Shown here: positions 4,116 through 61,771 of the stretch, one piece after another
Layout: the number at the start of each line of letters is the position of its first letter
How positions within the stretch are numbered: the first letter of the stretch is position 1
Assembly (NCBI GenBank): GCA_951406725.2
Contig: OX597831.1
Location: forward strand, 5,146,001 to 5,210,000
Length of the DNA stretch: 64,000 nt
Direction: 5' to 3'
Source of the DNA: Octopus vulgaris
Lineage: Eukaryota
Position numbers and translations under genes: made by a program
The notes under the pieces: generated by a model
Database searches by the model: none
Told to the model about the DNA's origin: nothing
What the model saw: the letters and a program-made list of their open reading frames with translations, nothing else

Positions 4116-4172
4116 GTTTTCGTTATTTATTACAGTTGTTTAATTTTGTTTCTTTTTTTTTTTTTTGTCAAG

Positions 4173-4343
4173 GTTTGGTTCCAAAATCGCCGCACGAAAT
4201 GGCGCAAGCGGCACGCGGCAGAAATGGCATCAGCTAAAAAGAAACAAGAACAGGCTGAGGAACTGGAAGGCACTTCAGACTTGGAAGACGATAGTTCTGA
4301 TCTGGCGAGAAGTCACGGCATGTCTCTTGATCATTCTGGGTGA
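4173..4343 (+). CDS. Nkx6: Terminal coding exon of an Nkx6 (HGTX-type) NK-class homeobox gene: homeodomain helix 3 plus acidic C-terminus; upstream exons lie outside the window
   Basis: Poly-T tract plus AG acceptor at 4171-4172, then phase-0 [32 protein letters not shown]...[30 protein letters not shown] is the Nkx6-family signature, and the QVK|VWFQ intron position is a typical homeobox intron site. Confidence 0.93.
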
Positions 4344-7001: not shown

Positions 7002-7540
7002 AGGCGGCGAGCTGGCAGAAACGTTAGCACGCCGGGCGAAATGCGTATTTCGTCTGCCGTTACGTTCTGAGTTCAAATTCCGCCGAGGTCGACTTTGCCT
7101 TCCATCCTTTCGGGGTTGATTAAATAAGTACCAGTTACGCACTGGGGTCGATATAATCGACTTAATCCGTTTGTCTGTCCTTGTTTGTCCTCTCTGTGTT
7201 CAGCCACTTGTGGGTAGTAAAGAAATAGGTATCTCGTCTGCCGTCACGTTCTGAGTTCGAATTCCGCCGAGATCGACTTTGCCTTTCATCCTTTCGGGGT
7301 CGATAAATTAAGTAGCAGTTACGCACTGGGGTCGATATAATCGACTTAATCCGTTTGTCTGTCCTTGTTTGTCCTCTCTGTATTTAGCTCCGTGTGGGTA
7401 GTAAAGAAATAGGTATCTCGTCTGCCGTCACGTTCTGAGTTCGAATTCCGCCGAGATCGACTTTGCCTTTCATCCTTCCGGGGTCGATAAATTAAGTACG
7501 AGTTACGTACTGGGGTCGATATAATCGACTTAATCCGTGT
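7002..7540 (+). mobile_element. SINE family B tandem array: one head plus ~3 units of ~183 bp
   Basis: Units rejoin at AAGAAATA|GGTATCTCGTCTGCCG. Confidence 0.88.
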
Positions 7541-13920: not shown

Positions 13921-14843
13921 AAACACAACAAAAGCTATAAAACAAGTGTAATCCAGACTAAAACTAGAACAAAACGATGGCAAAAAAAGCCCCTTCATGG
14001 CAAATACTGGACTAAACTAAATGCAAAAGAAATAGACAAAGAAAAATCCCAGCAATGGTTGAGAAGCTCAGGACTCAAAGCAGAGACAGAGGGATTTTTA
14101 ATTGCAGCACAAGACCAAAGCCTCCCCACCAGAAATTACCAAAAACATGTAATGAAAAGAAATATAACAAGTAACTGCAGAATATGTGGAGATGGACAAG
14201 AAACAATAAATCATATTGTCTCTGGCTGCCCAGTCCTGGCTTAGAAGGAATATATTCACAGACACGGCAGAGGTGGGACCTACATACACTGGAAGATATG
14301 CCAACATTATGGAATAACAACAGAAAAAAGATGGTATAAGCACACGCCAGAAAAGGTCACAGAAAACTAGAAAGCAACCATACTCTGGGATATGCCAATA
14401 CACATAGATTAGAGAAATTAAGGTCAATAGGCCTGATACAGTTGTCAGAGATCATGAAGAAAAAAATTGCTTTCTAATTCATGTATCAATACCAGCAGAT
14501 GACAACGTGGCTCTGAAAGAAATGGAGAAGCTTTCAAAATACAAAGACCTGGAAATAGAGGTAACTAGAATGTGGAATCTAAAAACAGAAACAATTCCTA
14601 TCATAGTAGGTGCATTAGGCATGATAAAAAAATATTCAGACAAATACATAACAAAAACACCAGGACTTACAAACACATATAACATACAGAAAATTGCACT
14701 ACTAGGCACTGCACACATCCTACGCAGAACACTTTCAATACAGTAACCATCAGAGCATCACAACAAATCACAGCACATACCCAAGGCACACAGAGCTGCG
14801 CTCGGTAGTGAAGTGAAAGCACGCTATAAAAAATATACTACTG
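13921..14843 (+). mobile_element. 5'-truncated R4/Dong-clade non-LTR retrotransposon (zinc knuckle plus restriction-like endonuclease), copy 1, pseudogenised
   Basis: KPLHGKYW, ETEGFLIAAQDQ, CCHC knuckle CRICGDGQETINHIVSGC, RH..., PD..D, EKLSKYKDL, PIIVGALG, QKIALLGTAHILRR*. 3' UTR ends in (TAA)n and the left flank is (TAA)n/(GAA)n; Dong elements are known TAA-repeat targeters. Confidence 0.85.
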
Positions 14844-14860
14844 AATAATAATAATAATAA

Positions 14861-15103
14861 CGGTTTCAAATTTTACCACTAGGGCAGCCATTATGGGGGA
14901 GGGAATGAGTTTATTACATCGACCCCAGTGTTCGGATGTTACTTAATTTATAGACCCCGAAAGGTTGAAAGGCGAAGTGGACATAGGCGGCATTTGAACT
15001 CAGAGCATAAAACCGGACGAAATGCCGCGAAGCATTTTGCCCGGCGTGCTAACGATTCTGCCAGCTCACCGCCTTAAATAACAACATCATCAACAACAAC
15101 GGC

Positions 15104-15188
<85 letters not shown>

Positions 15189-16109
15189 GAAAAGAAATAT
15201 TACAAGTAACTGCAGAATATGTGGAGATGGACAAGAAACAATAAATCATATTATCTCTAGCTGCCCAGTCCTGGCTAAGAAGGAATATATTCACAGACAT
15301 GACAGAGTTGGAACCTACATACATTGGAAGCTATGCCAACATTATGGAATAACAACAGAAAAAAGATGGTATAGGCACACACCAGAAAAGGTCACAGAAA
15401 ACGAGAAAGCAACCATACTCTGGGATATGCCGATACACACAGATAGAGAAATTAAGGCCAACAGACCAGATATAGTTGTCAGAGATCATGAAGAAAAAAA
15501 TGCTTTTTAATTGATGTATCAATACCGGCAGATGACAACGTGTCTCTAAAAGAAATGGAGAAACTCTCAAAATACAAAGACCTGGAAATAGAGGTAACTA
15601 GAATGTGGAATCTGAAAACAGAAACAATTCCTATCATAGTAGGTGCATTAGGCATGATAAAAAAATATTCAGACAAATACATAACAAAAACACCAGGACT
15701 TACAAACACATATAACATACAGAAAATTGCACTACTAGGCACTGCCCACATCCTACGCAGAACACTTTCCATACAGTAACCATCAGAGCATCACAACAAA
15801 TCACAGCACATACCCAAGGCACACAGAGCTGCGCTCGGTAGTGAAGTGAAAGCACGCTATAAAAAATATACTACTGAATAATAATAATAATAACGGTTTC
15901 AAATTTTACCACTAGGGCAGCCATTATGGGGGAGGGAATGAGTTTATTACATCGACCCCAGTGTTCGGATGTTACTTAATTTATAGACCCCGAAAGGTTG
16001 AAAGGCGAAGTGGACATAGGCGGCATTTGAACTCAGAGCATAAAACCGGACGAAATGCCGCGAAGCATTTTGCCCGGCGTGCTAACGATTCTGCCAGCTC
16101 ACCGCCTTA
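14861..16109 (-). mobile_element. Two identical SINE B copies (14861-15076 and 15893-16109), one after each Dong fragment
   Basis: Both share the same private substitutions; offset 1033 bp. Confidence 0.85.
15189..15876 (+). mobile_element. R4/Dong-clade fragment, copy 2, closer to intact consensus
   Basis: CRICGDGQETINHIISSC, HRHDRVG, RPDIVVRD, LIDVSIP; flanked by (TAA)n on both sides. Confidence 0.85.
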
Positions 16110-16136
16110 AATAACAACATCATCAACAACAACGGC

Positions 16137-19280: not shown

Positions 19281-19353
<73 letters not shown>

Positions 19354-19613
19354 TGAGGGAGATAAATTAATATTAATTTTAATATCAATTTAAAACCAGT
19401 AGTCCAGCATTCAAAAAATCTGAGGAGTCAGAGAAAATTCAAATATATGTGTATATTGGCAGGGCTGGCCTGCTAGGTAGCCGGCCAGAATGCTAGAAAT
19501 AGATCATCAACGATCAAACTACAAGGGAAATTCTCTAGAGGAAGAATTCAGCGAACACCAGAACCAAATTTGGCGGGCAGGACATATGAAAAATTAAATA
19601 AAAAACAGACTTA

Positions 19614-19689
19614 AATGCATACCTCGGTTTCGGTCTTAACAAAAGAATTACTTGCATAATTCAAGTGTCCGTGACTTCTTCAGTACATT
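19614..19689 (-). ncRNA. Type I hammerhead ribozyme with minimal stem III
   Basis: Reverse complement of the motif at 20590-20665. Confidence 0.72.
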
Positions 19690-20589
19690 CGGTCCTCGAG
19701 ATGCAAACCGCAAGACTAACCCCAGCTCTCTGTGTCAAGACAGACACGTGCTTAGTCTTACTGATTACATCGGGAATAAAATTTCAAATGTCTTGGTTCC
19801 GGCGCGCTAAGAGACTCCTGAAGCGAAGGGCTGCAGTGAATAATTCACTGCGGGTAAAGCTTACTACTAGGGAACGTATTTATTTAAATATTTAAAAATT
19901 GAGGGAGATAAATTAATATTAATTTTAATATCAATTTAAAACCAGTAGTCCAGCATTCAAAAAATCTGAGGAGTCAGAGAAAATTCAAATATATGTGTAT
20001 ATTGGCAGGGCTGGCCTGCTAGGTAGCCGGCCAGAATGCTAGAAATAGATCATCAACGATCAAACTACAAGGGAAATTCTCTAGAGGAAGAATTCAGCGA
20101 ACACCAGAACCAAATTTGGCGTGCAGGACATATGAAAAATTAAATAAAAAACAGACTTAAATGCATTGGTTCTGGTGTTCGCTGAATTCTTCCTCTAGAG
20201 AATTTCCCTTGTAGTTTGATCGTTGATGATCTATTTCTAGCATTCTGGCCGGCTACCTAGCAGGCCAGCCCTGCCAATATACACATATATTTGAATTTCC
20301 TCTGACTCCTCAGATTTTTTGAATGCTGGACTACTGGTTTTAAATTGATATTAAAATTAATATTAATTTATCTCCCTCAATTTTTAAATATTTAAATAAA
20401 TACGTTCCCTAGTAGTAAGCTTTACCTGCAGTGAATTATTCACTGCAGCCCTTCGCTTCAGGAGTCTCTTAGCGCGCCGGAACCAAGACATTTGAAATTT
20501 TATTCCCGATGTAATCAGTAAGACTAAGCACGTGTCTGTCTTGACACAGAGAGCTGGGGTTAGTCTTGCGGTTTGCATCTCGAGGACCG

Positions 20590-20665
20590 AATGTACTGAA
20601 GAAGTCACGGACACTTGAATTATGCAAGTAATTCTTTTGTTAAGACCGAAACCGAGGTATGCATT
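20590..20665 (+). ncRNA. Type I hammerhead ribozyme with minimal stem III, predicted cleavage after GUA at 20659
   Basis: Stem I AAUGUA/UGCAUU; core CUGAAGA (20596-20602); stem II (A)GUC...GAC(C) with inner hairpin; GAAA (20648-20651); stem III ACC-GA-GGU; H17=A. Confidence 0.72.
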
Positions 20666-20798
20666 TAAGTCTGTTTTTTATTTAATTTTTCATATGTCCT
20701 GCCCGCCAAATTTGGTTCTGGTGTTCGCTGAATTCTTCCTCTAGAGAATTTCCCTTGTAGTTTGATCGTTGATGATCTATTTCTAGCATTCTGGCCGG

Positions 20799-20848
<50 letters not shown>

Positions 20849-26920: not shown

Positions 26921-27424
26921 GTGTGTGTGTGCGTGTGTGTATGCATGATGTAACAAAACTGAAAAAAAAAAAATTTCGCGACATAAATGTATTAAAATAC
27001 ACACCTCTGTCTGTCTCGCTCACACTCATGTGCACACACATGCGAACACACGTGTGTGTATGCCTCTCTCTCTCTCTCTCTCTCCCCATCTACCTATCTA
27101 TCTCTGTATATATTTGTGTGTGTGTGTGCCAGTGTATGCGTGTGTTGTGTTTGTATGGACACACACACGCATATATATACATATGTGTATATCAATGTGT
27201 GTGTGTTTATATATATATATAATATAATACAATATATATATGTAAAGAGAGAGAGAGAGAGAGAGAGAGAGACATGGGAGTGAAAGGGAGACAGAGCGAG
27301 AGAGAAAGAAAGCCAGACAGACAGATACAGACAGCAGCAGAGACTGACATATATATATATATAACACTGGGTGGTGTTGCGGCTGTACGTTCAAGTGATT
27401 CTGTTACCACTGCATGTCTCTCTG

Positions 27425-27493
<69 letters not shown>

Positions 27494-27511
27494 ATATTTA
27501 TCTATCTATCT

Positions 27512-28203
27512 GAGGATGAGAATAGAGAGGAAGGCTTTGTCGAGGCCAAAACTGAATACATAAACAAGTGCCTGTCCAACAGTGATTGCATCATCCACAC
27601 TCTCAACAGTGCACCTTTAAATATGGTTTCTGATTATAAATATCTTGGGTCATACATATCATCATCTGGAAAAGACTTTCTAACTAGAAAGGGTATGGCC
27701 TGGTCAGCCTGTAATGACATGCATAAGATCTGGTCATCAAATCTAAGTAGAGACTTCAAACTTGAAATATTCAAAGCCACAGTCGAACCAATCCTACTAT
27801 ATGGCTCAGAAACCTGGACGTTATCAAAGAAGCTTGAGAGGCGGTTGGATGGAACCTACACTCGCCTCCTTATGAGAGCTCAAAATCTCCCGTGGAGGCG
27901 CCATCCAACTAAAATGCAAATATATGGGAAACTACCACCTGTGTCATCTCTTGTGAAAGGTAGGAGAGTCCAGTTTGCTGGACATTGTTGTAGAGCTGAA
28001 AAAAGAAGTAATTTCTACTCTTCTCCTCTGGAAGCCATCTACTCGCAACACCAGAGGGCGCACACTCTCCTACCCTGATGTAATCTCCAGGGATACAGGC
28101 ATCCAGCAACAGGACCTCCGTAATGCTATGATGGACCGTGAAGTCTGGCGCAACATAGTAAATTCCATTGTCTCGACCACGGTCGAACAATGATGATGAT
28201 GAT
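27512..28203 (+). mobile_element. 5'-truncated RTE-clade LINE 3' end with (TGA)n tail; one frameshift near 28000
   Basis: DYKYLGSYIS, ATVEPILLYGSETWTL, RRVQFAGHCCR, MMDREVWR...VEQ*, followed directly by TGATGATGATGAT. Confidence 0.9.
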
Positions 28204-33312: not shown

Positions 33313-33342
33313 ACGTATACGTATATATATATATATATATTT

Positions 33343-33636
<294 letters not shown>

Positions 33637-35800: not shown

Positions 35801-36951
35801 TTATTTCTTTATTGCCCATAAGGGTCTAAACATAGAGGGGACAAACAAGGACAGAAAAAGGGGTTACGTCGATAATATCGACCCCAGTGCGCAACTGGTA
35901 CTTAATTTATCGACCCCGAAAGGATGAAAGGCAAAATCGACCTCTGCGGAATTTGAACTCAGAACGTAACGGCTGACGAAATACGTATTTCCTTACTACC
36001 CACAAGGGGCTAAACACAGAGGGGACAAACAAGGACAGACAAACGGATTAAGTCGATTATATCGACCCCAGTGCGTAACTGGTACTTATTTAATCGACTC
36101 CGAAAGGATGAGAGGCAAAGTCGACCTCGGCTAAATTTGAACTCAGAACGTAGCGGTAGACGAAATACCTATTTCTTTACTACCCACAAGGGGCTAAACA
36201 CAGAGAGGACAAACAAGGACAGACAAACGGATTAAGTCGATTATATCGACTCCAGTGCGTAAATGGTACTTATATAATCGACCCCGAAAGGATGACAGGT
36301 AAAGTCGACCTCGGCGGTTTTTGGAACTCAGAACGTAGCGGCAGACGAAATACCTATTCCTTTACTACCCACAAGTGGCTAAACACAGAGGGGACAAACA
36401 AGGACAGACAAACGGATTAAGTCGATTATCAACCCCAGTGCGTAACTGGTACTTATTTAATCGACCCCGAAAGGATGACAGGCAAAGTCGACCTCGGCGG
36501 AATTGGAACTCAGAACGTAGCGGCAGACGAAATACCTATTCCTTTACTACCCACAAGTGGCTAAACACAGAGAGGACAAACAAGGACAGACAAACGGATT
36601 AAGTCGATTATATCGACCCCAGTGCGTAACTGGTACTTATTTAATCGACCCCGAAAGGATGACAGGCAAAGTTGACCTCGGCGGAATTTGAACTCAGAAC
36701 GTGAAGACAGACGAAATACCTATTTCTTTATTACCCACAAGGGGCTGAACATAGAGGGGACAAACATGGACAGACATAGGTATTAAGTCGATTATATCGA
36801 CCCCAGTGCTTAACTGGTACTTATCTAATCGACCCCGAAAGGATGACAGGCAAAGTCGACCTCGGCGGAATTTGAACTCAGAACGTAGCGACGGACGAAA
36901 TACCGCTAAGCATTTCGCCCGGCGTGCTAACGATTCTGCCAGCTCACCGCT
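35801..36951 (-). mobile_element. SINE family B tandem array (~6 units of ~183 bp) abutting an older B head at ~35690-35800
   Basis: Repeated CAGACGAAATACC|TATTTCTTTACTACCCACAAG junctions; single full head at ~36900-36951. Confidence 0.9.
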
Positions 36952-42634: not shown

Positions 42635-42901
42635 GTTATTATTATTATTGTTATTATTATTATCAATACTATTATAACTTTATTATCATCATCATCATCG
42701 TTATTATTATTAGTATTATTACTATCGTCATAAAGGCGGTGCGCTGGCAAAGTCATTTGCATGCCGGGAAAAAATGCAGAGCAGTTATTTCGTCCGTCTT
42801 TCCGTTCTGAGTTCAAATGCCGCTGAGGTCGACTTTGCTCCTCATCAGTTCGGCTTCGATGAAATAATTATCCGTCTAGCACCGGGGCTGATGTAATCGT
42901 C

Positions 42902-43727
42902 TTACGCATGTATGGTCTTCCTAAGATTCACAAGGATGGTATTCCATTAAGACCTATAGTGAACTGTAGAGGTTCAGCATGTCATCCACTGAGCCGCTTC
43001 CTTGTGGATATAATCAGTCCATTAGCAGGAAAGTCAACATCGTACGTGAAGAATTCCACCCACTTCCCAGAATTGATCAAGGCTACCCCCATTGAATCCA
43101 ACCAGATGCTGAGTCTAGATGTGGTAAGTCTGTTCACCAAAGTCCCAACTGGTGAAGCACTATCGGTGATACAAGAAAAACTAGTGACAGACATCCATCT
43201 AAAAGAACGCACTAGTATACCAAAAAGAAACTTGATGGGAATGCTGACCTTCTGTGTAGAAGCTACCTACTTCAGAATGGACTCTGATATATATCAACAT
43301 GAAGAGGGTTTAGCTATGGGTTTGCCATTATCACCGGTAATAGCCAATATGTACATGGAATGCTTTGAGAATTTGGCTTTAGGATCAACACCACTAAAAC
43401 CAAGCCTATGTCTGCGATATGTTGATGAGACCTTCATACTCTGTCCCCACCAGGAAGATGTCCAAGTGCTGTTAAATCAGGTGAACGTAATAAAGCCATC
43501 CTACAGTTCGCAACGGAAAAGGAAAAAGACAATCAGCTGGCATTCCTGGACATATTAATAACACGCACCAAGTATGGATTCAGGACATCCGTATACCACA
43601 AGCCGACCTTCACTAGACAATCCCTCAACTTCAATTCCCACCATCCATACAGTGTAAAGAGAGGGATTGCTCAGTGCCTAAAACATCGAGCAAAGAATAT
43701 GAGTAGCGATCGTGATACCGACCATGA
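42902..43727 (+). pseudogene. Penelope-like element reverse transcriptase fragment, frameshifted near 43500; GIY-YIG domain absent
   Basis: MYGLPKIHK..PLRPIV, SLDVVSLFTKVP, GLAMGLPLSPVIANMYME, LRYVDETF, FLDILI, SVYHKPT, NFNSHHPYSVKRG are characteristic PLE RT motifs. Confidence 0.92.
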
Positions 43728-43884
43728 AGAAATTCTCATGAATTGCTCGGAATGTGGAATTGATGAAGGGTCGTTCTTTATGTTACTTGTCTTGTTTTCA
43801 ATTTGTTTCTTTCGTTGTTCGCATACCCAAGTTTGCCTTCGTATTTCATATTGTTTACGTTATGTGACGTCCTGTACCTATGTA

Positions 43885-43948
<64 letters not shown>

Positions 43949-44204
43949 TAAACAGTAAAAATAATTACAGACATGGACAAGAACATGAAACGCCACAGAG
44001 ACGACACAAGAACCACAGGACGGGACATTCGAAACATATATACATACATATACATGTAAGCATGTACACATATGTATGTATATATATATATATATATAAA
44101 TAGATAAATAGATATAATAATATATATACTATTACATGATTGAACGCAACGCATCCGTTCCCAAGTAAGTTTATCTTATACATATATATATATATATATA
44201 TACG

Positions 44205-44678
44205 TTTAAATATTTGTTGATGAGACCTTCATACTCTGTCCCCACCAGGAAGATGTCCAAGTGCTGTTAAATCAGGTGAACGTAATAAAGCCATCCTACA
44301 GTTCGCAACGGAAAAGGAAAAAGACAATCAGCTGGCATTCCTGGACATATTAATAACACGCACCAAGTATGGATTCAGGACATCCGTATACCACAAGCCG
44401 ACCTTAAATATTTGGTGAACAGACTTACCACATCTAGACTCAGCATCTGGTTGGATTCAATGGGGGTAGCCTTGATCAATTCTGGGAAGTGGGTGGAATT
44501 CTTCACGTACGATGTTGACTTTCCTGCTAATGGACTGATTATATCCACAAGGAAGCGGCTCAGTGGATGACATGCTGAACCTCTACAGTTCACTATAGGT
44601 CTTAATGGAATACCATCCTTGTGAATCTTATTTATATATATATAAATAGCGGTTCTATCTTACCTGTAATATTACAGG

Positions 44679-44830: not shown

Positions 44831-45060
44831 CATCTAAGAGTATATATATATATACGCATGTATGTATATGATGGATTCTGTCGTCGTGAACGACAAATGA
44901 GGGGTCAGTAAAACAAAGCTTTAGTCATGTTCTGTGGGCAGGAATGTGTCTTTTGAGGCCTGTTGGTGCATTGAAATATTTGTTCTTGTCCATGTCTGTA
45001 ATTATTTTTACTGTTTACCTATATATATATATATACACACTCACACCCACATATATATAT
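44205..45060. repeat. Patchwork of local duplicates: 44213-44404 copies ~43420-43610, 44410-44628 is an inverted copy of ~42923-43139, ~44640-44977 copies ~45065-45400
   Basis: Near-exact identity read directly. Confidence 0.85.
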
Positions 45061-48817: not shown

Positions 48818-49395
48818 GGCGGCGAGCTGGCAGAAACGTTAGCACGCCGGGCGAAATGCTAAACCGTATCTCGTCTGCTGCTACGTTCTGAGTTCAAATT
48901 CCGCCGAGGTCGACTTTGCCTTTCATCCTTTCAGGGTCGAGTAAATAAGTACTAGTTACACGCTGGGTTCGATATAATCGATTCCGTTTGTCTGTCCTTG
49001 TTTGTCCCGTCTGTGTGTAGCCCCATGTGGACAGTAAAGAAATAGGTATTTCGTCTGTCTTTACGTTCTGAGTTCAAGTTCCGCCGAGGTCGACTTTGCC
49101 TTTCATTCTTTCGGGGTCGATTAAATAAGTACCAGTTACGCACTGGGGTCGATATAATCGATTCCGTTTGTCTGTCCTTGTTTGTCCCGCCTGTGTGTAG
49201 CCCCATGTGGACAGTAAAGAAATAGGCATTTCGTCTGTCTTTACGTTCTGAGTTCAAATTCCGCCTAGGTCGACTTTGCCTTTCATCCTTTCGGGGTCGA
49301 TAAATTAAGCACCAGTTGCGTACTGGGGGGTATATCTAGTCAACTGGCCCCTCTCCCAAAATTTGGGGCTTTGTACATAGAGTAGAAAAGACTAT
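48818..49395 (+). mobile_element. SINE B array: head, two B2-tailed units, final B1-tailed unit
   Basis: Junctions AAAGAAATA|GGTATTTCGTCTG; last unit ends GGCCCCTCTCCCAAAATTT...TAGAAAAG. Confidence 0.88.
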
Positions 49396-57958: not shown

Positions 57959-58000
<42 letters not shown>

Positions 58001-58002
<2 letters not shown>

Positions 58003-58947
58003 TAAACAGTAAAAATAATTAGACATGGACAAGAACATGAAACACCACAGAGACGACACAAGAACCACAGGACGGGACATTCGAAGCCCTCAGTCATCAG
58101 TCAAGAACCAGATCATCTTAGCAATTTCGGCTGATTAATCTTGAGATTGCTCCGATATGGCCAGCCAGCCAAGGGAAATCTAAGCCAAGCGCATTAGATC
58201 CCCTGGAAGAAAGCTTCGAATGTATACAACACGAGGACGGAAAACGAACGAAGTACACGAACAAAAATACAGAATACGTGACACCAATAAGAATACAAAA
58301 ACGTAAAAACAATAACGGTAAAAATAAAAAATAAACAACAAAACAAAACCAGGACGTAGGACAAGGGTCTTTCGACAGGACGAGTTAAGTATGGGGCTGG
58401 CTTGTGAAGTTGTGCCTAATGGCCGCGGGGAGACGAACAAGTACGTGTTGCTTCTGCGACTGCTGAAACGAAAAGAGCGCTCAACAGCGGCTAGCGGTCA
58501 CGTGAGAACAAAAGACAGGAGAAAGGGACAGATGAAAAGAGAGAGAAGGTGGACGAGGGAGGAGAAGAAAGAGACAGATCGAGGGGGCTGGAGGTGAGAG
58601 AGATGGAGAAACGTAGAAGGAGGGGGAAGACGGATGGAGAGGGAAAGAAAGGAAGGGGAATAAGGGAGAGAGAGAGAGAGAAAGAGACAGATTAAGAGTC
58701 GTATCAATGTTAGAGAAAAAATATACTTATCGTATAAGGACAATTGTGGATACGTAGCCGCCGATTATATAGGTAAACAGTAAAAATAATTAGACATGGA
58801 CAAGAACATGAAACACCACAGAGACGACACAAGAACCACAGGACGGGACATTCGAAGCCCTCAGTCATCAGTCAAGAACCAGATCATCTTAGCAATTTCG
58901 GCTGATTAATCTTGAGATTGCTCCGATATGGCCAGCCAGCCAAGGGA
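58001..58947 (-). mobile_element. TA-inserted non-coding element with a 771-bp unit and ~176-bp terminal direct repeat (pLTR-like)
   Basis: GGTAAACAGTAAAAATAATTAGAC... at 58001 and 58772; same terminus at 43947 and, inverted, at ~44980-45020. Confidence 0.75.
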
Positions 58948-59081
58948 ATATACGGATTACAAATTCTGTTTGTTTGTGGAGACTTATTTTTCTAGTAGTA
59001 GTAATGGTAACCTATTTGGCTGCTATTTCTAATATTTTCAGTATGTGGTTTAAGCAATTTGTTGCAATTAACCCTATATTA

Positions 59082-59165
<84 letters not shown>

Positions 59166-59300
59166 CATGTATGTATAATTTACAAGATAAGGGCAGAAGA
59201 AAAATTCTAATGCCAGATACGCCGAAACAAAAAATTGTCGATAACCATTAAATTTATGCGTCTCGAAACAAACCGATAGAAATCTCTAAAAAATTCGTTA

Positions 59301-59361
59301 TTACCGTATTGGTCCAATTTCGGGGTTAATTCACAAGAAATTTTCCCCTCTTCAGCGGCAA
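59301..59361 (-). ncRNA. Canonical type I hammerhead ribozyme in a TA-flanked element (~59178-59497)
   Basis: Minus strand UUGCCG-CUGAAGA-GGGG(AAAAUUUCUUGUGAAUUAA)CCCC-GAAA-UUG-GAC-CAA-UA-CGGUAA. All core nucleotides intact; stem I 6 bp; palindromic stem III; AUA cleavage triplet. Confidence 0.82.
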
Positions 59362-59495
59362 ATACGCGAGATATAAATGAAATACTTACTCATACCCATG
59401 GAAGAAGCAAGCACCAAATTTTACCTTTAAAGGTATTTTTTGATATGCTGGCCATTGATAAAACTTTTTTCCCGAAAAGATTTTTACCCTATATC

Positions 59496-59554
<59 letters not shown>

Positions 59555-60294
59555 GGTATGTATGTATGTATGTATGTATGTATGTATGTATGTATGTATG
59601 TATATAAGCATATGCACAGGTGTCTGCATGCGTATACACGTGTCTACACACACTCTCACATGCACACATACACACAGACACGCATACACACACATACACA
59701 CACACACACACAATGTATATCTATAAAAAGAGATTCTCTTTGTAATAACAACCAAACGTCTTTGAAAGCAAACGTATATTTTGGACAATGGAATCGAAGT
59801 TAGACTATTCCTGAAAAAAATGACACACACACACACACACACAAACCGACTGAATGGTCATTGTTGGATTGTCTGTGATGACCGACTTAGTGGATTTAAG
59901 GTGAAAGTTCGGTGCCAGGATCTAAAAAAACGCCATGACCAATAAACCGATGCAATTTGAACGGCGGCGAGTTGATAAGAGTTAATGAATCGTCAAGAAT
60001 GGCCAAATATTTATATGACGTGGCTTTAGTTTAAACATGATCGACGGACATTGATAGTGATCTGAGGAATGAAGAAGGGCAGGTGGGGGGGCAGTGGAAG
60101 GAGGCTGGCCTGCTGAGGAATGGTGGGGATTTATTTTGGGGCAGGAGAGGAAACCGAGAATTGGGTAGGGGTTGCTGACGATGCTTTGTATGTCTGGCTA
60201 TCTGTTTTGATTGAAGGATTAAGACAGGAATCAGTTATGGCCGTTTAAGGAAGGATAATTAAGGAGTTGAAGAAAGAAATAGAGAAGAGGACAG

Positions 60295-61113: not shown

Positions 61114-61213
61114 NNNNNNNNNNNNNNNNNNNNNNNNNNNNNNNNNNNNNNNNNNNNNNNNNNNNNNNNNNNNNNNNNNNNNNNNNNNNNNNNNNNNNNN
61201 NNNNNNNNNNNNN
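61114..61213. other. Assembly gap (100 N)
   Basis: Direct reading. Confidence 1.
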
Positions 61214-61771
61214 GTAGATAACGATACATCTACACGTTTATATATATGCGGTGAGTCGAAACAGAGGCAGCTGAAGAAGGGGAATGTTCCCTCTGTTGTT
61301 TGTATTGTACTCTGTTTTTTCGCTGTTAAAAAAAGTCCGTTTCCTTTTTTGGTTTTATGTTTTCGTTTCTCGTTGTGTTCTACGTTTATTTGTGGTGTCC
61401 TCTACTCATATATGCATGTATATATACATATAGATGTAGGTATGTACATACATGTATGTATGTATGTATGCATATGTTTTATTTATTAAATTGTTATTAT
61501 ATATACATGTATATATACATACATACATATATATAAAATGATACATTTCTTCGTTTACCATTTCTGTGTTTTTTTTATCTCCGTCCTTGTTTTCGTATAC
61601 ATTCGCTGCTTTCTTCCAAGGAACGTAATGCTCTTAGCTTATTTTTCCTTGGGGCTCGCCAGATTGGAGCAATCTCGAGTATAACCAGCCGAAATTGCAA
61701 AGATAATCTGGAACTCGACTAAGGATAGAAAACTCCGAATGACCCCTCCTTGTTTTCTTTGTGTATATATA

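Follow-up and report, generated by a model that had tools for sequence, protein, structure and literature searches.

A type I hammerhead motif within a truncated and inverted repeat copy in TA repeats of the Octopus vulgaris genome

Organization of the window and of the hammerhead locus

The window, the whole stretch of DNA analysed here, covers 64,000 nucleotides of Octopus vulgaris (contig OX597831.1 of assembly GCA_951406725.2, positions 5,146,001 to 5,210,000 of the forward strand), and all positions below are counted from its first letter. It consists of animal-type DNA dense in microsatellites and short repeats, and the output of the repeat finder was dominated by microsatellites. An insert with a hammerhead motif is located between (TA)n tracts near the right end of the window, and the features of this locus are listed below with the evidence in parentheses.

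59086..59174, no strand: left target flank, (TA)n followed by a short TATG-type stretch (sequence)
59175..59414, minus: inverted arm with the hammerhead, corresponding to the upstream portion of the 3' region of the element (opposite-strand joint and loose ends in contigs)
59301..59361, minus: type I hammerhead motif (descriptor, shuffles, folding)
59361-59356, minus: 5' strand of helix I (descriptor)
59349..59355, minus: core box CUGAAGA, C3-A9 (descriptor; no variants at a share of at least 3% among paralogues)
59322..59348, minus: helix II and its loop, four G-C pairs including G10.1-C11.1 (GGGG at 59348-59345, CCCC at 59325-59322)
between the helix II strands, minus: loop II of 19 nt, final base A, with a possible weak inner hairpin
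59321-59318, minus: core box GAAA (descriptor)
59318-59308, minus: palindromic helix III, AUUGG-A-CCAAU, 5-bp arms around one A
59308/59307, minus: U16.1/A17, cleavage triplet AUA
between 59307 (A17) and 59306 (C1.1), minus: predicted cleavage site (motif register)
59306-59301, minus: 3' strand of helix I, 6 bp with one G-U pair
59300, minus: unpaired U1.7 (read from the sequence)
59415, no strand: inversion junction, one base foreign to the family context of both arms (loose ends at 59414 and 59416)
59416..59500, plus: non-inverted arm, the 3'-terminal 85 bp of the family, running into (TA)n (loose ends; one 709-nt contig)
59499..59604, no strand: right target flank, (TA)n followed by (TATG)n (sequence)

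Directly to the left of the insert, the segment 58949-59090 ends in the element's 8-base motif followed by AATTA before (TA)n, the occurrences at 59072 and 59487 being the only matches in the window (3.7 expected by chance); this neighbour may represent the 3' end of a sister family, although the alignment is otherwise poor. A third repeat family is present at 58766-58948, 57995-58177, 43941-44033, 44981-45025 and 61580-61750, its end mostly adjoining (TA)n, and two of the copies, those starting at 57995 and 58766, show 100% identity over 183 bp. This family contains CUGAUGA on the minus strand, and no hammerhead was found in it with either the strict or the relaxed descriptor.

Hammerheads are also included in a family of 546-bp units, which occupies 19349-20801 as 1.5 tandem units plus an inverted arm in (TA)n, with 636-bp arms that are 100% complementary; the inverted arm stops inside the unit, as in the element at 59175-59500. 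The two hammerheads of this family, at 19690-19613 (minus) and 20589-20666 (plus), pair over 7 bp in helix I, are mismatched at A10.1-C11.1 and carry a long loop II, and their helix III is a palindrome around GA (predicted duplex -6.6 kcal/mol). A partial relative of the family lies at 33340-33498. The element had been described, from the letters alone, as sharing no primary similarity with the 546-bp unit (19.3-20.8 kb), and a blastn search (word size 7, E of 1 or less) likewise gave none. Neither did blastn detect similarity of the element to anything else in the window, and forced pairwise alignment to the hammerhead of the 546-bp unit or to the end of the left neighbour was uninformative.

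Elsewhere in the window, broken reverse transcriptase remnants were identified at 42863-43750 and 44212-44630 (RVT_1, E 1.5e-10) as near-identical duplicated pieces in direct and inverted orientation, and we take their motifs to recall Penelope/Poseidon, that is, to be of the type of Penelope-like elements (PLEs). Fragments resembling the ORF ends of non-LTR retrotransposons lie at 14098-15510 and 27365-28078, and the segment 14154-15103 is duplicated at 15189-16136 (96.6%). A SINE-like unit of 180-184 bp forms arrays of 2.6-6 copies at 7038-7538, 35802-36904 and 48866-49328, with many dispersed fragments in addition, and this 184-bp tandem repeat presumably resembles octopus SINEs. The probable last exon of a homeobox gene is located at about 4170-4343 on the plus strand, with a WFQNRR motif followed by residues that we take to be Nkx6-like; its only PDB match was the penetratin peptide (E 0.007).

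A complete type I hammerhead on the minus strand

For identification of hammerheads, both strands of the window were scanned with a descriptor that, in its strict form, requires at least 6 bp in helix I, at least 4 bp in helix II and at least 4 bp in helix III. The 36 CUGANGA sites in the window yielded a single match, the complete type I hammerhead at 59361-59301 on the minus strand. When the 55,410 non-microsatellite bases were subjected to 400 dinucleotide shuffles and both strands were scanned, no strict match and 24 lenient ones were obtained. The relaxed descriptor added to the window just two motif copies, both within the 546-bp unit and both with the A10.1-C11.1 mismatch. At 59361-59301 all residues of the type I core (C3 U4 G5 A6 N7 G8 A9, G12 A13 A14 A15.1, and U16.1 H17) are in register, and the three helices, open at helix I, comprise 6 bp, 4 bp and 4(5) bp. 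A full core, a G-C stem II, a 6-bp stem I and a palindromic stem III had been noted at 59301-59361 by a sequence-only reading that gave no strand; all of these were confirmed, and the strand is minus. The self-cutting RNA motif at 59361-59301 is real and well formed.

The base U1.7 at 59300 and the A that ends loop II are candidate partners in a tertiary contact. A contact of the U1.7 type with loop II has been described, and is defined there for a tetraloop, in the accessible part of the source (PMC11875169). Rfam gave no match in the window at gathering score and no hammerhead among 36 matches at E of 10 or less around the locus; the matches obtained at the locus by E-value were those of microsatellites to miRNA-type models and were rejected.

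Two opposed arms between TA repeats

The structure of the insert was examined on contigs of public runs. Among 24 runs listed, 20, from nine studies, contain part of the stretch, and four were used for contig placement with cut-offs of 80% likeness and 3% share. The insert extends from 59175 to about 59500 (~326 bp) and is composed of two arms, which are opposed in orientation and not collinear with its family. A joint between 59175 and 59416 on opposite strands was detected in all four runs (4, 8, 1 and 1 contigs), and a joint 59175/59418 in two more contigs. As compared by eye, the loose ends of contigs before 59175 correspond, with about 4 additional bases, to 59416 onward in reverse complement, and those before 59416 (30, 33, 16 and 3 contigs) are similar to 59175 onward in reverse complement, while those behind 59414 (27, 34, 8 and 5 contigs) lead into sequence absent from the window. 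From these joints and loose ends, the order of the family, read in the sense of the hammerhead, is deduced to be upstream sequence, 59414 to 59175, ~4 bases, 59416 to 59500, and (TA)n. The hammerhead is then in sense, and about 220 nt separate its cleavage site from the 3' end adjoining (TA)n.

The position of (TA)n next to the end of the element is seen in the flanks in the window and in one further contig, a piece of 709 nt from a single run (X9), which starts at 59432 and matches up to 59501, where (TA)n and a different flank follow; this run, merely guessed to be RNA, is uninformative on expression. Between the left and right flanks of the insert, 16 of 17 bases match, possibly as a target duplication, which in this place is indistinguishable from the microsatellite. 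The earlier description of a ~320 bp element at 59178..59497 between (TA)n tracts therefore stands as far as the TA flanks are concerned, but the bounds are 59175 to about 59500, and the insert is not one collinear element.

In addition to the opposite-strand joint, joints on the same strand, leading from the left arm into the 3' arm, were found at 59224/59437, 59227/59432, 59231/59444, 59269/59444 and 59313/59444, with one contig per run each. These five further joints suggest that inversions have recurred independently within the family. For the window's own junction, 59414-59416, no bridging piece was found among the 32 contig pieces listed, with 5526 others outside the listing. A 5' truncation with an inverted arrangement is present at the locus, and the arms do not overlap, unlike those of a classical inverted duplicate. 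Most likely, the insert is a 5'-truncated and 5'-inverted retrocopy.

Some minor features of the element were also observed: a perfect 14-bp palindrome at 59422-59435 in the 3' arm, a frame of 18 codons that begins with the ATG at 59445 and stays open up to the element's 3' end (59445-59500, plus), and a splice-donor-like GTAAGT at 59389-59384 (minus), upstream of helix I. They are possible traits of a pseudo-LTR (pLTR), such as the start of an ORF and an intron, and lie within chance.

An apparently young repeat family and its variation

The element belongs to a high-copy repeat family, since 1936, 2526, 926 and 99 contigs were placed in the four runs; the summed contig depth was not taken as copy number. 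The copy in the window differs from the majority letter of the family at 59216, 59220, 59334 and 59464, with 59284 near even (4-5 of 326 places), and at 1-2% from the family majority it looks young. Because of this youth, an intact motif needs no selection.

Substitutions or indels at a share of at least 3% were listed in the contigs of the four runs at 30 of the 326 places. Within the ribozyme, variable places were 0 of 13 in the core, 0 of 8 in helix II, 0 of 6 in helix III, 4 of 22 in the loops and 3 of 12 in helix I. The core and helices II and III together (0/27) thus differ from the loops (4/22) at a one-sided p of 0.035, and from the element's remaining places (30/299) at p 0.066, while the core alone (0/13) gives p 0.28, all of these values being post hoc and based on depth-weighted contigs. 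Loop II contains one substitution and two indel places. In helix I, the changes at 59358 and 59359 occur at near-equal depth and keep all six pairs, whereas the variant at 59361 (12-27% of depth) disrupts the outer terminal pair. A one-base insertion in loop III of some paralogues keeps the palindrome, with a predicted duplex of -12.3 vs -8.9 kcal/mol. CpGs were found to vary at 0 of 3 sites inside the ribozyme and at 6 of 10 outside, as counted by hand on a sample too small for a test of selection, and the longest invariant run, 84 nt at 59378-59461, lies outside the ribozyme.

A difference in conservation between core and loops had been proposed as a check on the ribozyme, and its direction proved right, but the difference is weak (p 0.035 to 0.28) and no two-sided compensatory change was found among the paralogues in the contigs of the four runs. 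To that weak extent, the pattern of variation is consistent with a functional ribozyme.

Outside the public runs, no exact-pattern match to the element was obtained in metagenome contigs or viral contigs, and three such matches in prokaryote genomes, of 22-32 bases with unrelated flanks, were rejected as chance. Two pieces of the element, of 12-16 bases, gave no match in the supplement of Craig et al. (2021) as accessible, in which the sequence lines are wrapped. The literature searched, whose scope leaves aside most subscription journals and the entries of Repbase and Dfam, contained no description of this hammerhead repeat family.

Predicted folding of monomer and dimer

The folding figures given here are two-dimensional estimates without tertiary contacts. 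Helix II was predicted with pair probabilities of 0.92-0.97 in every context folded. In the minimal RNA of 65 nt, helix I reached 0.91 and helix III 0.13, and the full active secondary structure accounted for about 7% of the ensemble. Upon extension of the context to between 83 and 501 nt, the predicted values dropped to 0.09-0.00 for helix III and to 0.64-0.00 for helix I. When at least 11 bases upstream were included, 59366-59361 and 59310-59305 formed, in the predicted minimum-energy fold, a helix that spans the cleavage site. The segment of helix III was predicted at +1.8 kcal/mol as a hairpin and at -8.9 kcal/mol as an intermolecular self-duplex. Whole-region folding z-scores were unremarkable (-0.59, -1.34 and +0.99). 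As predicted by these models, the monomer would be mostly inactive and the helix III dimer stable. The suggestion that this is a PLE-type hammerhead with a dimer-dependent stem III agrees with the difference between duplex and hairpin and with the same design in PLEs of the Hydra clade, and we infer from these that cleavage would take place in the dimer.

Origin of the insert and alternative explanations

The reading that we favour, and consider somewhat probable, is that the insert represents a dead-on-arrival copy of the 3' end (3' UTR or pseudo-LTR) of a Penelope-like element, from a young family of high copy number with (TA)n as its insertion site. Like PLEs, the locus shows a hammerhead in sense near the 3' end and truncation with inversion, and the reverse transcriptase remnants at 42.9-43.7 kb (RVT_1, E 1.5e-10) were counted in favour as well. 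Counted against it were the lack of a linked ORF, the weak conservation, an imperfect fit to the Hydra clade (see below), the unbridged junction, and the dispensability of cleavage in the one PLE tested. With respect to the ORF, none of 46 flanking frames matched Pfam (55-63.2 kb; 46 of 81 frames listed for 53-64 kb). In the accessible part of the work on that PLE, the purified Poseidon protein of the anole nicked and extended both strands at AT-rich DNA and started reverse transcription internally, and cleavage by the ribozyme needed protein and was dispensable for insertion in vitro (PMC11167929).

The scenario that we infer combines descent from a PLE, two priming events, cleavage in the dimer and a silent copy at this locus, and would proceed as follows. 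In a TA/TATG tract, both strands would be nicked by the endonuclease of the element, and one RNA would be primed twice for reverse transcription. Priming at the 3' terminus of the RNA would copy 85 nt (59416-59500), and internal priming at a second point, upstream by a further 4 nt or so, would copy 240 nt onto the other strand (59175-59414), after which the two arms would be joined head to head with one extra base. In intact tandem members of the family, two hammerheads could pair via the palindromic helix III, perhaps with the help of the element's protein, and the dimer would cleave the long transcript at a site some 220 nt upstream of the element's 3' end, while the monomer would mostly misfold and cut little. 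The copy at 59175-59500 is probably silent, because its 5' part is lost, it has no tandem partner, and read-through of the minus strand would be needed. It had been put forward as the best candidate in the window for an active ribozyme, but activity of this copy in vivo is unsupported: it is a lone truncated and inverted copy, with no second hammerhead of the family in the window, and the active monomer fold is predicted at ~7% in the minimal context, while in longer contexts helix III drops to 0-9% and a competing helix masks the cleavage site. What is new here, namely the strand, the evidence for a family and the inverted arrangement, lowers the odds of activity for this copy.

A more elaborate picture, which is speculative and in our estimate decidedly unlikely, regards the family as an undescribed young non-autonomous retrozyme or PLE tail in which the hammerhead works as a built-in switch between monomer and dimer. 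The 6-bp helix 59366-59361/59310-59305 would mask the site, pairing of two 5+5-bp palindromes would free it, and a contact of U1.7 with loop II would lead to fast cleavage; the inversion junctions would be a record of double-strand priming by a dimer of the PLE protein.

Instead of the tail of a PLE, the family might be a short non-autonomous unit without an ORF, either a non-LTR retrozyme or a PLE-derived SINE-like unit, which is transcribed in tandem, cut by its hammerhead, maybe circularised, and mobilised by PLEs in trans; the copy in the window would still be a truncated and inverted retrocopy. The helices I and II of 6 and 4 bp, the G10.1-C11.1 pair and the unpaired U1.7 are indeed of the retrozyme type rather than that of minimal PLE hammerheads, the 546-bp family nearby consists of short non-coding units in tandem whose hammerhead is similarly designed, and animal retrozymes are derived from PLE pLTRs in a preprint, as far as accessible (Li et al. 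2026, 10.64898/2026.07.22.740005). However, no tandem of the hammerhead family is present in the window, none of the joints listed ties the 3' end back upstream (the unit may exceed the stretch covered), and the 3' end adjoins (TA)n both in the window and in one other contig. This possibility deserves attention but is on the whole unlikely.

A retroelement other than a PLE, such as a LINE 3' UTR or a tRNA-derived SINE, could also have landed in (TA)n, its inversion being due to twin priming of the L1 style. While the non-overlapping arms and the small loss at the inversion agree with the accessible description of L1 twin priming (PMC2837659), and no PLE ORF is linked, there is no evident poly(A) or element-encoded repeat tail beyond the TA target, and the signature of PLEs and retrozymes, in the literature compared below, is a hammerhead of type I at the 3' end whose helix III is palindromic, which leaves such an origin very improbable.

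Even less credit is given to an assembly artefact, in which a repeat would have been collapsed in microsatellite-rich DNA and the true copy would be collinear. The unbridged 59414-59416 among the 32 pieces listed and a 100-N gap at 61114-61213 of the window would be in its favour, but similar joints are found at other breakpoints in other contigs, and the 546-bp family in the window is likewise inverted, with one arm ending internally.

Least probable of all is a host-used monomeric ribozyme that actively cuts read-through minus-strand transcripts at 59361-59301, since against the intact core, the stable helix II, the possible U1.7-A tertiary contact and a possible 4-bp helix III of the monomer (about 7% active fold predicted in minimal context) stand the youth of the copy, at 1-2% from the majority, which makes selection unnecessary for intactness, the competing helix predicted to mask the cleavage site once upstream sequence is included, and the lack of an identified host gene nearby (46 flanking frames, Pfam).

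Comparison with known systems

Statements on published systems refer to those parts of the cited papers that were accessible. Among PLEs of the Hydra clade, (TA)n is preferred by 26 of the 27 families listed; of 25 hammerheads listed, 22 have a palindromic helix III with arms of 4 bp and a centre of 1-2 nt, and 11 have A17, all by our own counts (Craig et al. 2021, PMC8557442). The element resembles them in that its hammerhead is of type I, is located in sense close to the 3' end, has A17 and contains a helix III palindrome with a 1-2 nt centre, and also in (TA)n, but differs in the helix III arms (5 bp vs 3-4), in loop II (19 nt vs 3-10 nt by our own counts) and in the distance from ribozyme to 3' end, which is about 296 nt by the measure of Craig et al. 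and exceeds that of 23 of 24 Hydra families (range 87-425 nt). The octopus family Hydra-1_Obim is alike in the design of helix III, and its 3' end sequence is unrelated to the element by eye. Inverted 5'-truncated copies are common in PLEs, and the consensus of Penelope-13_HM itself carries one (PMC8557442). Since (TA)n targeting is also common to Neptune and to Naiad, the latter being without canonical hammerheads (PMC8557442), this trait is not diagnostic for the Hydra clade. At the protein level, the Hydra clade is marked by RWK and DKT motifs, a CxCX5C linker and the lack of CCHH, and Neptune by CX2-5CxxC together with CCHH. A complete EN+ PLE has one ORF for a PLE reverse transcriptase and a GIY-YIG endonuclease, with direct pLTRs on its two sides and a tail of 30-40 bp.

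The hammerheads that metazoan PLEs carry in their pseudo-LTRs (Cervera & De la Pena 2014, PMC4209133; review PMC6765202) resemble that of the element in being type I with a palindromic helix III. In these two sources, helix III is read as a dimerisation module, cleavage in the dimer is proposed, and monomer activity is low; the hammerheads are mostly solitary and tied to truncated PLEs (PMC4209133). The element is different from the minimal metazoan forms with respect to its canonical helices I and II of 6 and 4 bp, the lack of an extra base after A9, and the longer helix III. With animal non-LTR retrozymes (PMC7229834; 10.64898/2026.07.22.740005), which form tandem repeats with one hammerhead per unit and are expressed as both linear and circular RNA, it shares a canonical type I hammerhead and a non-coding, low-GC, multi-copy unit, but within the window it has neither a tandem nor a second hammerhead of its family. 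In twin-primed 5'-inverted L1 insertions (PMC2837659), as in the element, the upstream arm is inverted, the 3' arm is forward, and a little sequence is lost at the inversion point; the element is distinguished from them by the lack of a poly(A) tail, by its microsatellite target, and by not being an L1.

Many animal genomes contain hammerheads of PLE tails by the thousand (PMC4209133), so that one more has little weight by itself, and the combination of palindromic helix III with (TA)n targeting, as well as the idea of the dimer, is already in print. A young and abundant family with canonical geometry and a longer palindrome is, nevertheless, a clean substrate for the question whether PLE hammerheads need a dimer or a protein, and its recurrent non-overlapping inversions could serve to test both-strand priming by PLEs, which is unvalidated in vivo in the accessible part of PMC11167929. 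Compared with these systems, the element most likely works like the tail of a PLE.
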